Assembly: GCF_013315695.1 (NCBI RefSeq)
Contig: NZ_CP054353.1
Reading direction: 5' to 3' (one strand)
Length of the DNA stretch: 64,000 nt
Source of the DNA: Escherichia coli
Lineage (GTDB): Bacteria; Pseudomonadota; Gammaproteobacteria; Enterobacterales; Enterobacteriaceae
Both the position numbers and the translations under genes were made by a program. Below are positions 20,213 to 46,608 of this stretch, piece after piece; position 1 is the first letter of the stretch; every line of letters starts with the position of its first letter. Below the pieces are notes generated by a model, which saw nothing but the letters and a program-made list of their open reading frames with translations, searched no databases and was not told the origin of the DNA.

Positions 20213-21625
20213 TGGCGACATGGCAACTTGGCGGGCTGCCTAGCATGGCACCGCAAAATGATAATGCTCCTCGTTCTTCCGTTCCTCAGCCTGTGCAGTA
20301 TCAGCAGCAGCCAAACGTAGGTTTAATGGCGCTACAGGGGCTAAGAGGCGTTGCTGAGATTAATCAGCAGGCACGTCAACAACAGCGTAAAGCAGAGTTT
20401 CAGAAAGCATATGCCGGGGCTTTTGAGTCTGGAGACAGAAACAAAATGCGCAGTCTTATTTCTGAGTATCCAGAAGAATTTGAAAGCGTTCAGAAAGGGA
20501 TGGGCTTTATTGATGACGACCAGAGAAATTCTATTGGTCATCTTGCGACTAGTGCTCAAATCGCATCTTCGCTCGGAACTGGGGCATTTGGAAAATTCAT
20601 AGCAGATAACGAAGATGAAATGCGTCGTTTGGGAATTTCTCCTGAGTCTGTTGCCGAAATGCATGTTAATGATCCACAGGGATTCCAGCGGCTTGCTGGT
20701 AGTATGGCACTGTTTTCTCTCGGTCATGAGAAGTACTTCGATATCAAAGATCGAATGGAAGGTCGGGATATTGAGCGTGGCAAGTTGGCAGAGACGATCC
20801 GCAGCAATCAAGCCGGAGAAGCACTTCAGGCGAGAGGGCAGGATATTAGCCGAGCAAATGCGTTAACGTCAGCATATGCACCAACAGCCGCAATGCAGAA
20901 TTACAATCAATACGCGCAAATGTTAAAGGCGGATCCAGAGGGGGCTGCGGCATTTGCGGCAGCGGCTGGAATTAATACAAACGCCAAAAAATTAATGAGT
21001 GTTAGAGAAAACGATGATGGCACTGTCACAAAATACTACACAGACGGAAGTGAAGAGCAGGGAAAACTAAACCAGCCAATATCTGGAGATGGGTTTCGTC
21101 CAATAGCTTTGCCAACAGCCCAAAAGATCATGGAAAAGTCGCCAGAAGGGGCTAAAAAAGCTGCTGGATTTGCATACAGAGTTAGGGATGCTCTTGATTC
21201 AATAGATACACTGAAAGACCAGCTTAGCCCACAGCGAGTGGCGATCATTAATAATGCTTTGGGTAATGGGACGCTGGCTAACTTAACGCTCAGCCCAACA
21301 GAGCAGCAATACGTTGTTAATGCTAATGACGCAATAATGGCAATACTCCGTCAGGAAACAGGGGCATCTATCCTACCAGCTGAAATGTCCAAATATTATC
21401 AAATGTATTTCCCTCAGCCTGGTGATTCCACAAAAACCATTGATACCAAGCGTAGGAAGATGGAAAACCAGTTCAATTCGCTGAAAGCTGCTTCTGGTCG
21501 AGCTTATGATGCTTTGCGGGTTATTTCAGCAGTTGACAGAGGAACTTCTTCTTCGTCGCAGACATTGCCGCAATCTGAGCAGGTATCACAGCCAGCAGTA
21601 ATTTTTCTTCACTATGGGGTGATTA
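20212..21625 (+). pseudogene. coupled-operon gene 3, 3' end interrupted by IS1 (ancestral product ~474 aa)
   Basis: Open frame runs into IS1 at 21626; rejoining the split target duplication gives native end ...HYGVING-stop, overlapping the ATG of the 701-aa gene now at 45798. Confidence 0.6.
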
Positions 21626-22393
21626 GGTAATGACTCCAACTTATTGATAGTGTTTTATGTTCAGATAATGCCCGATGACTTTGTCATGCAGCTCCACCGA
21701 TTTTGAGAACGACAGCGACTTCCGTCCCAGCCGTGCCAGGTGCTGCCTCAGATTCAGGTTATGCCGCTCAATTCGCTGCGTATATCGCTTGCTGATTACG
21801 TGCAGCTTTCCCTTCAGGCGGGATTCATACAGCGGCCAGCCATCCGTCATCCATATCACCACGTCAAAGGGTGACAGCAGGCTCATAAGACGCCCCAGCG
21901 TCGCCATAGTGCGTTCACCGAATACGTGCGCAACAACCGTCTTCCGGAGCCTGTCATACGCGTAAAACAGCCAGCGCTGGCGCGATTTAGCCCCGACATA
22001 GCCCCACTGTTCGTCCATTTCCGCGCAGACGATGACGTCACTGCCCGGCTGTATGCGCGAGGTTACCGACTGCGGCCTGAGTTTTTTAAGTGACGTAAAA
22101 TCGTGTTGAGGCCAACGCCCATAATGCGGGCTGTTGCCCGGCATCCAACGCCATTCATGGCCATATCAATGATTTTCTGGTGCGTACCGGGTTGAGAAGC
22201 GGTGTAAGTGAACTGCAGTTGCCATGTTTTACGGCAGTGAGAGCAGAGATAGCGCTGATGTCCGGCGGTGCTTTTGCCGTTACGCACCACCCCGTCAGTA
22301 GCTGAACAGGAGGGACAGCTGATAGAAACAGAAGCCACTGGAGCACCTCAAAAACACCATCATACACTAAATCAGTAAGTTGGCAGCATCACC
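21626..22393 (-). mobile_element. insAB: IS1 copy 1 (768 bp, complete)
   Basis: Terminal repeats GGTAATGACTCCAACTTATTGAT ... ATCAGTAAGTTGGCAGCATCACC; InsA (22063..22338) and InsB (21641..22144) identical to canonical IS1 proteins. Confidence 0.97.
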
Positions 22394-22611
22394 GAATAAA
22401 CGTATCCTCACGATTGCGCCATTCTTCTTACCGATATTCTGACACACATCATTAACTTTCTATTTTACTCTTTTCTCCACCATAAAATCAATAAAAGCAC
22501 TAACAGTAATTATAAATAAAAACAAAGCCAAAAATCTTGGTTCCAAAACTGGTAACAACTAACCAGTTTAAATATACGCATCAAAATCAGATAAACATTT
22601 GAGGTATTGTC

Positions 22612-22854
22612 ATGACAAAAAAACACCTATCACTGTTTTCTCCTTTTATGCTGACAGAAAAAATAAAGCCATGTAATCGTATCGTTATGGCTCCTATGAC
22701 GACCTGGTCAGCTAATCCTGATGGAACCATCTCTGAGCAAAAACTCGAATATTATAAATGTCGCTCACAAAATATTGGTTTAGTAATTACAGGATATACC
22801 TATGTCACGCCAAGGAAATTCAGGCATCGAAAGGAACTGGCTGGTTTCCGTTAA
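22612..22854 (+). pseudogene. fragment of an Old-Yellow-Enzyme-type NADH:flavin oxidoreductase (ykgP-like remnant)
   Basis: 80-aa ORF, N-terminal segment IKPCNRIVMAPMTTWSANPDGTISEQ resembles the OYE N-terminus; truncated. Confidence 0.4.
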
Positions 22855-45798: not shown

Positions 45799-45807
45799 TA
45801 ATCACCC

Positions 45808-46575
45808 GGTGATGCTGCCAACTTACTGATTTAGTGTATGATGGTGTTTTTGAGGTGCTCCAGTGGCTTCTGTTTCTATCAGCTGTCCCTCCTGTTCAGC
45901 TACTGACGGGGTGGTGCGTAACGGCAAAAGCACCGCCGGACATCAGCGCTATCTCTGCTCTCACTGCCGTAAAACATGGCAACTGCAGTTCACTTACACC
46001 GCTTCTCAACCCGGTACGCACCAGAAAATCATTGATATGGCCATGAATGGCGTTGGATGCCGGGCAACAGCCCGCATTATGGGCGTTGGCCTCAACACGA
46101 TTTTACGTCACTTAAAAAACTCAGGCCGCAGTCGGTAACCTCGCGCATACAGCCGGGCAGTGACGTCATCGTCTGCGCGGAAATGGACGAACAGTGGGGC
46201 TATGTCGGGGCTAAATCGCGCCAGCGCTGGCTGTTTTACGCGTATGACAGGCTCCGGAAGACGGTTGTTGCGCACGTATTCGGTGAACGCACTATGGCGA
46301 CGCTGGGGCGTCTTATGAGCCTGCTGTCACCCTTTGACGTGGTGATATGGATGACGGATGGCTGGCCGCTGTATGAATCCCGCCTGAAGGGAAAGCTGCA
46401 CGTAATCAGCAAGCGATATACGCAGCGAATTGAGCGGCATAACCTGAATCTGAGGCAGCACCTGGCACGGCTGGGACGGAAGTCGCTGTCGTTCTCAAAA
46501 TCGGTGGAGCTGCATGACAAAGTCATCGGGCATTATCTGAATATAAAACACTATCAATAAGTTGGAGTCATTACC
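45808..46575 (+). mobile_element. insAB: IS1 copy 3 (768 bp, complete)
   Basis: Terminal repeats GGTGATGCTGCCAACTTACTGAT ... ATCAATAAGTTGGAGTCATTACC; InsA 45863..46138, InsB 46057..46560. Confidence 0.97.
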
Positions 46576-46608
46576 CGTTTATTCATAATAAATCTCCTGA
46601 AAGTTTAG

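Follow-up and report, generated by a model that had tools for sequence, protein, structure and literature searches.

IS1 is reported to generate adjacent deletions and intramolecular rearrangements (Turlan and Chandler 1995, EMBO J 14:5410, as cited in PMC12428005). Its insertion duplicates 9 bp of the target, sometimes 8 bp (PMC12428005). Inversions in E. coli are known to arise by recombination between inverted IS copies, and in the long-term evolution experiment with this species 19 inversions were found among 110 large rearrangements, most involving IS elements (PMC5009759). For IS26, inversion by intramolecular replicative transposition 'in trans' has been described (He et al. 2015, mBio, PMC4471558).

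The window analysed here, a stretch of 64,000 nucleotides, is from E. coli MSB1_4I (NZ_LR898874.1, assembly GCF_905071835.1). In the literature searched, the one paper that names this strain is an unrelated Salmonella study. Its sequence and a comparison with related genomes identify a 23.4-kb chromosome segment that has been flipped between two oppositely oriented IS1 copies. The inversion is confined to one replichore. Of its breakpoints, one lies within an island gained by horizontal transfer and the second within the core chromosome. The features of the inversion and the IS1 copies of the window are as follows.

21617..21625, plus strand: target duplication 1, left copy, GGGTGATTA, outside IS1 copy 1
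21626..22393, minus strand: IS1 copy 1, 768 bp, IS1A-type, at the left inversion breakpoint
22394..22402, minus strand: target duplication 2, reverse-complement copy, GAATAAACG, complement of CGTTTATTC, on the inner side of IS1 copy 1
22394..45807: inverted segment, 23,414 bp between the IS1 ends, in reverse alignment to strains AF3 and AF14 with both flanks collinear
25129..25896, minus strand: IS1 copy 2, 768 bp, within the inverted segment
45799..45807, minus strand: target duplication 1, reverse-complement copy, TAATCACCC, on the inner side of IS1 copy 3
45808..46575, plus strand: IS1 copy 3, 768 bp, IRL left and IRR right, at the right inversion breakpoint
46576..46584, plus strand: target duplication 2, right copy, CGTTTATTC, right of IS1 copy 3
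63495..64000, plus strand: IS1 copy 4, incomplete at the window end, oriented as copy 3, with no part in the inversion

The inverted segment contains an oxidoreductase remnant, ykgR, ykgM, ykgO, IS1 copy 2, ecpC'DE, ykgJ and yagU, together with an integrase, phage-like genes, IS2, PerC and a gene-16-like gene. In a repeat search of the window, copies 1 and 3 form an inverted pair of 769 nt that is 100% complementary, with 23,412 nt between the arms. Both junctions of the inversion are base-exact with intact IS1 ends, as determined by script, and no sequence has been gained or lost at them.

The 9-mers beside copies 1 and 3 had been described in an earlier note as exact reverse complements in both pairs. 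Re-inspection by direct reading and by script bears this out crosswise, GGGTGATTA pairing with TAATCACCC and GAATAAACG with CGTTTATTC. The chance of two exact 9-mer matches at fixed positions adjacent to the junctions is ~(4^-9)^2, roughly 1.5e-11, a figure that we calculated for uniform base composition. Within the window, GGGTGATTA occurs once, as does its complement. When the segment is re-inverted in silico, a direct 9-bp repeat is restored on both sides of copy 1 and of copy 3. The sign of the GC skew is reversed in exactly 22394-45807, being -0.023 inside and +0.051 and +0.064 in the flanks (Welch p = 9e-5). At 46576..46584, CGTTTATTC precedes the annotated start of a LysR-family regulator gene by 150 bp; one additional, unrelated copy of this 9-mer is present in the window at 62772.

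The IS1 ends GGTAATGACTCCAACTTATTGAT and GGTGATGCTGCCAACTTACTGAT match at 18/23 positions, as imperfect terminal inverted repeats of ~23 bp. In copy 1 the IRR end (GGTAATGAC) is on the left and the IRL end on the right, with insA/insB on the minus strand. Each copy has the insA/insB' frames as overlapping ORFs of 91 aa and 167 aa, annotated in the record as 'IS1-like element IS1A family transposase, programmed frameshift'. Copy 3 differs from copies 1, 2 and 4 by a single base, a G>A change at IS position 34 that is synonymous in insB. This position is G in both AF3 copies, therefore the change postdates the split of MSB1_4I and AF3. As a later change absent from both AF3 copies, it is uninformative as a crossover locator or as a discriminator between mechanisms.

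Comparison with other E. coli genomes supports the inversion. Across 5426 complete genomes, both present junctions are found in MSB1_4I only, and no genome has the present arrangement without IS1; the earlier note had named the finding of such a genome as one that would refute its reading. The note had also suggested that the reconstructed junctions be compared with uninverted genomes. The first empty site (site 1, between genes 20 and 16) is contiguous in 299 genomes, and the second (site 2, between the oxidoreductase remnant and the LysR-family regulator gene) is covered at >=80% in 90. Uninterrupted sites carry the 9-mer once, the flank alignments overlapping by exactly 9 bp in CUWW11 for site 1 and in AF14 for site 2. 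The gene-20 flank is present at 100% identity in MSB1_4I only.

The only close relative is AF3, with 99.76-99.98% identity to the window. It is collinear with the window at 1-10943 and 45808-64000 and reversed against 22424-46579. Both sites are occupied by IS1 in AF3, with the inverted relative orientation that the reconstruction predicts, and its segment is uninverted. At site 1 the IS1 has the flank GGGTGATTA-ATGGCT, the latter being the start of gene 16, and at site 2 it has the flank CGTTTATTC. AF3 thus fits the state before the inversion with both IS copies present, though each copy there has lost its left flank, with 10.7 kb missing at site 1 and only 30 bp at site 2. Only MSB1_4I and AF3 have IS1 at site 2. 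The more distant AF14, used as an outgroup, is uninverted, with a K-12-like order, and lacks all of these IS1 copies; against it the window flanks are collinear and the segment is reversed. No full intermediate, with both IS1 copies, intact direct duplications and an uninverted segment, was found among the 5426 complete genomes.

Re-inversion gives the order yagU-ykgJ-ecpEDC'-IS1-ykgO-ykgM-ykgR adjoining LysR-AKR-AKR-fdeC(eaeH), as in AF3 and AF14. The K-12-like order that the earlier note expected is therefore restored, with ykgO-ykgM-ykgR again on the LysR/fdeC side. Four co-oriented genes are also rejoined, as proposed, although these are a P22-type ejection module, genes 14, 7, 20 and 16, and no metabolic operon. 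The present positions of these genes are as follows.

19080-19541, plus strand: gene-14-like, P22-type
19535-20212, plus strand: gene-7-like ejection protein, P22-type
20212-21630, plus strand: gene-20-like ejection protein, P22-type, the present ORF ending 5 nt inside IS1
43693..45798, minus strand: gene-16-like DNA transfer/ejection protein, 701 aa, matching phrog_770 (E 3.6e-159)

The gene-14/7/20-like matches in PHROGs are phrog_651, phrog_598 and phrog_917 (E 1e-66 to 5e-110), and the AF3 counterpart of the gene-16-like gene is annotated 'P22-gp16 family phage DNA ejection protein'. The island that holds the module is located at the thrW tRNA gene; the inversion parted gene 16 from genes 14, 7 and 20. 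In the sequence rejoined in silico, the gene-20 stop overlaps the gene-16 ATG. The gene-20-like protein, annotated 'phage DNA ejection protein, frameshifted', now ends in ...YGVIR* and in the reconstruction ends in ...YGVING*. This loss of the last two codons came from the IS1 insertion itself, before the inversion. The consequences of the inversion are small: gene 16 is apart from genes 14, 7 and 20, and ~20 genes have a changed orientation relative to replication.

Compared with AF14 or K-12-like genomes, the other two IS1 copies of the window simply mark deletions. Copy 2 has no target duplication, with TAAAACTTA on one side and GGATGATGG on the other, and is at a deletion of 2,346 bp (sized from AF14) that took away the 5' end of ecpC together with ecpB, ecpA and ecpR. 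This junction is common to MSB1_4I and AF3 only. At copy 4, a deletion has joined ykgG to a truncated lacA. When all IS1 flank 9-mers were compared pairwise, no reverse-complement match placed copies 2 and 4 in further inversions. The repeat search also reported an extra 15-16 nt of complementarity between the flanks of copies 2 and 4 and those of copies 3 and 1. This was rejected as an artefact of a mismatch-tolerant search that has only scattered matches (GGATGATGGACAGCTA, ...AATCCATTCCTG); true extended matches would have meant a more complex history with three copies per duplication.

The inversion in the MSB1_4I lineage probably arose when two inverted IS1 copies that were already present underwent homologous recombination. 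In the ancestor of MSB1_4I and AF3, two oppositely oriented IS1 copies would have been separated by about 23.4 kb. The first would have been between genes 20 and 16 of the P22-type module in the thrW island, with the 9-bp duplication GGGTGATTA. The other would have been intergenic, between the oxidoreductase remnant beside ykgR and the LysR-family regulator gene, with the duplication CGTTTATTC. Homologous recombination by the host between these 768-bp inverted repeats would then, in the MSB1_4I lineage, have flipped everything in between, swapping the inner halves of both target duplications, so that each 9-mer would pair as a reverse complement with the 9-mer at the other IS1. The inversion, its exact end points and the presence of both IS1 copies in an uninverted relative are shown directly, whereas we infer that recombination was the mechanism, that it depended on RecA and that each IS1 copy arrived by simple insertion.

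The final structure is exactly that of a one-step intramolecular replicative transposition, and the window alone therefore cannot discriminate between the two mechanisms. In such an event, 'in trans', a single IS1 that already resided at site 2, flanked by a duplication of its own, would have attacked GGGTGATTA between genes 20 and 16, at once making a second, inverted IS1 copy and inverting the intervening 23.4 kb. Following the Shapiro model, the identical product is predicted, with inverted IS copies, the new 9-mer inverted and the donor duplication also split, a pattern taken as diagnostic for IS26 (PMC4471558). Since a one-step transposition of an IS1 with its own duplication yields this pattern, the split duplications alone are no proof of the two independent insertions, and hence recombination, that the earlier note had read from them; what sustains that part of its argument is AF3, the sibling that holds both copies uninverted. 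A new 9-mer that is inverted, one copy on the inner side of one IS and one outside the other IS, fits either pair, and recombination predicts the same. IS1 transposes replicatively with a tendency to local hops (PMC12428005; PMC5009759), and that it is reported to move mainly replicatively within the chromosome (PMC12428005) counts against recombination. IS1-adjacent deletions, which the same chemistry also produces, are seen in the window at copies 2 and 4, and in AF3 at copies 1 and 3. However, a single event would leave uninverted relatives with the donor copy alone and an empty target, and AF3 has both copies while more distant relatives have neither. No relative with IS1 at site 2 alone was seen among those compared, site 2 being empty in AF14, OZ546911 and MS 21-1. 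Because AF3 also has the site-1 copy, the one-step event would have to be placed in the common ancestor, with AF3 later flipped back by homologous recombination; a recombination flip is then needed besides the replicative event. That AF3 independently received an IS1 at the same 9-bp target, oriented the same way, is very improbable. The copies would be identical at birth; the present ones differ by one synonymous base, and both are G in AF3. The one-step origin is on balance unlikely. The number of events is equal, at five, for recombination and for this replicative alternative.

It seems rather doubtful, too, that the site-1 IS1 was born by replicative 'in trans' transposition from the site-2 copy and that the orientation has toggled since, AF3 and MSB1_4I being its two states. 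If this were true, it would be a natural chromosomal case in which replicative inversion by IS1 gave way to flip-flop. Cultures could then contain both orientations, with gene 16 alternately coupled to and uncoupled from the module, and the sequence upstream of the LysR regulator would alternate. Repeats of 768 bp are easily spanned by long reads. It is highly improbable that the arrangement is an assembly artefact, in which the 23.4-kb segment was misoriented between such repeats, or a mixed population with both orientations. The arrangement is a singleton (1/5426 genomes) and inverted repeats are a classic site of orientation errors, but the record was deposited as a complete circular chromosome, and both junctions are base-clean with the IS1 ends intact.

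Recombination between two existing IS1 copies, the favoured explanation, makes this an ordinary IS-mediated inversion of the textbook type, which points to no new mechanism, gene family or regulatory principle. It has little relevance beyond strain MSB1_4I. It is a remarkably clean, base-exact case in which both target duplications are legible and an uninverted sibling genome exists, and it is therefore usable as a teaching or benchmark example for structural-variant callers. The same example is useful in the debate over recombination versus one-step replicative transposition. Between thrW and lac, IS1 has been reshaping the MSB1_4I/AF3 lineage: the two strains together have one inversion and no fewer than four IS1-adjacent deletions. 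The ECP pilus operon is inactivated in this lineage, and the ykgH-to-lacA region of K-12 (bet genes and others) has been lost.

As in the IS inversions of the evolution experiment, two full-length inverted copies of one IS are exactly at the breakpoints, nothing is lost at the junctions, the hybrid IS copies are kept and the event is reversible in principle. There is no mechanistic difference from those inversions; the present case is small (23.4 kb), within a single replichore, with island and core breakpoints, and has both target duplications fully readable. It is also like the IS26 'in trans' inversion in having inverted IS copies around an inverted segment and matched target-length repeats that are inverted. 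The element here is IS1, with a 9-bp duplication, on the chromosome, whereas the other is IS26, with 8 bp, on a plasmid. For IS26 in pKpQIL, a relative with one copy supported the one-step reading, whereas in the present case a relative has the two copies without the inversion. Resembling the known IS1-adjacent deletions, copies 2 and 4 of the window, like copies 1 and 3 of AF3, have one flank deleted and no direct duplication. Those deletions remove DNA beside one IS end, whereas the event between copies 1 and 3 removes none and reverses the orientation of the DNA between them.

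The window carries four copies of IS1, numbered here from left to right.

21626-22393, IS1 copy 1, same orientation as copy 2 and opposite to copy 3
25129-25896, IS1 copy 2, same orientation as copy 1
45808-46575, IS1 copy 3, orientation opposite to copy 1
63495 to the end of the window, IS1 copy 4, same orientation as copy 3

Copies 1, 2 and 4 do not differ across the compared length and copy 3 has a single synonymous base difference (G>A at IS position 34). Length, terminal repeats, insA/insB' frames and the 9 bp duplication all agree with IS1, for which target duplications are 8 or 9 bp (PMC12428005). 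The 9-mers immediately left of copies 1 and 3, GGGTGATTA and TAATCACCC respectively, are exact reverse complements of each other, and so are those immediately right of them, GAATAAACG at copy 1 and CGTTTATTC at copy 3. Assuming uniform composition, the chance that two 9-mer pairs at set positions would both match exactly was calculated as approximately 1.5e-11. The crosswise pairing from which the earlier note proposed an inversion of ~23.4 kb is exact at both pairs, and its coordinates are all correct.

The two current flanks of each IS1 were joined, with the IS1 taken out, and searched against 5426 complete E. coli genomes. Both queries matched at a single place with 100% identity in just one genome, that of strain MSB1_4I (NZ_LR898874.1), isolated from a rectal swab in Australia and evidently the strain from which the window comes. 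The two junctions expected after re-inversion and IS1 removal were also searched, a check that the earlier note had proposed, and other genomes contain both. At site 1, the gene-20-like and gene-16-like sequences run on without a break in 299 genomes, where the annotation is invariably phage DNA ejection or injection protein. Site 2, joining ykgR and an oxidoreductase remnant to a LysR regulator gene, is at least 80% covered in 90 genomes. Flank alignments overlap by exactly 9 bp at site 1 in strain CUWW11 and at site 2 in isolate AF14, therefore each uninterrupted site has one copy of the 9-mer. This matches the expectation for a target duplicated later.

Strain AF3 (NZ_OZ547117.1; UK blood culture) is 99.76-99.98% identical to the window over the region, and the deletion junction at IS1 copy 2 is common to MSB1_4I and AF3 only. 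AF3 is collinear with window 1-10943 and 45808-64000 and reversed across 22424-46579, so compared with AF3 the MSB1_4I sequence is inverted, exactly between the two IS1 copies. AF3 has an IS1 at each site, oriented as predicted and followed on the right by GGGTGATTA and the gene-16 start codon at site 1 and by CGTTTATTC at site 2. Both left flanks are gone through adjacent deletions (window 10944-21625 at site 1; 30 bp, window 22394-22423, at site 2), which shows that DNA next to IS1 has been deleted repeatedly in this lineage. The more distant AF14 (NZ_OZ546925.1) has none of these IS1 copies. Its order is gene 14-7-20-...-PerC-yagU-ykgJ-ecpEDCBAR, continuing ykgO-ykgM-ykgR-oxidoreductase remnant-LysR-AKR-AKR-fdeC-...-ykgEFG-bet. 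The uninverted order is therefore ancestral, and the K-12-like order predicted on re-inversion is seen, with yagU-ykgJ-ecp-ykgO-ykgM-ykgR leading to LysR/fdeC.

Two routes lead to exactly this structure, and the window by itself does not discriminate between them. In the first, host homologous recombination would have acted on two IS1 copies that each had a direct duplication of their own, swapping the inner halves of the duplications; the history would be a pair of insertions, a single flip in MSB1_4I and, in AF3, two deletions. Alternatively, one IS1 with an existing duplication would have moved to the second site by intramolecular replicative transposition 'in trans', making the second copy and the inversion simultaneously, with the new target duplicated in inverted form and the donor's old duplication split likewise. 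For IS26, the identical signature is used as a diagnostic and a two-step interpretation has been explicitly contested (PMC4471558), and replicative movement of IS1 within the chromosome has been reported (PMC12428005). This history would comprise one insertion, a replicative inversion in the ancestor shared by the two strains, a return flip by recombination in AF3 and again the two AF3 deletions, requiring both mechanisms although the event count is equal. No relative has just one of the two copies, and the site-1 IS1 exists uninverted in AF3 with the same 9-mer and orientation, therefore it is older than the split between the two strains. The AF3 evidence tips the balance toward homologous recombination between two pre-existing IS1 copies, which is the probable origin of the structure, replicative transposition being unlikely. 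Under either route, MSB1_4I and AF3 differ by a flip between two existing inverted copies.

GC skew is +0.051 in 1-21625, -0.023 in 22394-45807 and +0.064 in 46576-63494 (Welch p = 9e-5, 1-kb windows). This reversal is as expected from the recent flip of a segment long resident in the other orientation and is equally compatible with a real inversion or an assembly orientation error; an assembly or mixed-population artefact is very improbable. The observation in the earlier note is confirmed and its interpretation supported, with a caveat on mechanism: AF3, with both copies uninverted, supports two independent insertions followed by recombination, but the window does not force this reading, since replicative transposition gives the same structure.

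Re-inversion rejoins the four genes previously described as an operon, identified by PHROGs matches as a P22-type module:

gene-14-like, phrog_651
gene-7-like DNA ejection protein, phrog_598
gene-20-like, phrog_917
gene-16-like DNA transfer protein, phrog_770

The module is in an island integrated beside tRNA-Thr (thrW), together with an integrase, an antirepressor, an ash-family gene and a TOPRIM/DUF927 primase-like gene. After reconstruction, the stop codon of gene 20 overlaps the start of gene 16 (…AATGGCTAA…). The IS1 target at site 1 is the 9 bp directly upstream of the gene-16 ATG, and insertion leaves gene 20 unchanged except for its final two codons (…VING* to …VIR*). Site 2 is intergenic, with the annotated LysR start 150 bp downstream.

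The island (window ~9000-21625 and 37131-45798) has satellite-like genes alongside a PerC-family regulator and the P22-type 14/7/20/16 ejection-protein module; the annotation of its first part lists no capsid or tail genes. A similar thrW island is present in CUWW11, and at least the distal part in AF14. The AF3 site-1 deletion (L002 ~37439) removed 10.7 kb of the island, including genes 14/7/20. MSB1_4I is without 6.4 kb that AF3 has directly beside IS2 (window roughly 35800-37130, break ~37130), corresponding to AF3 region 46866-53278 of the merged locus and coding for a major capsid protein, an HTH protein and several hypothetical proteins. A deletion next to IS2 in MSB1_4I is the probable cause.

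IS1 copy 2 lacks a target duplication and is at a 2,346 bp deletion relative to AF14 that takes out the ecpC 5' end plus ecpB, ecpA and ecpR; MSB1_4I and AF3 consequently have an inactivated E. coli common pilus operon. At copy 4 (63495-64000 and beyond; L004 38900-40002), where the two sides (CCATTCCTG and GGTGTCCCG) likewise show no target duplication, ykgG is joined directly to a truncated lacA, a maltose acetyltransferase fragment. The entire ykgH-bet-...-lacA stretch of K-12-like genomes is absent from MSB1_4I and AF3. The inversion has turned copies 1 and 2 into direct repeats spaced 3.5 kb apart (window 21626-25896), bracketing the oxidoreductase remnant, ykgR, ykgM and ykgO, which direct copies 2 and 3 bracket in AF3. 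This places ykgM and ykgO, genes for zinc-independent ribosomal protein paralogues, inside a composite-transposon-like unit with the potential for deletion or mobilisation.

Inversions in E. coli have a standard cause in recombination between inverted IS copies, and 19 inversions from the long-term evolution experiment have been summarised (PMC5009759). The signature of the IS1 pair is identical to that of IS26 inversions (PMC4471558). The MSB1_4I inversion is the same kind as those arising by recombination between inverted IS copies in E. coli, an ordinary finding that adds one new, strain-specific case to a well-known class.
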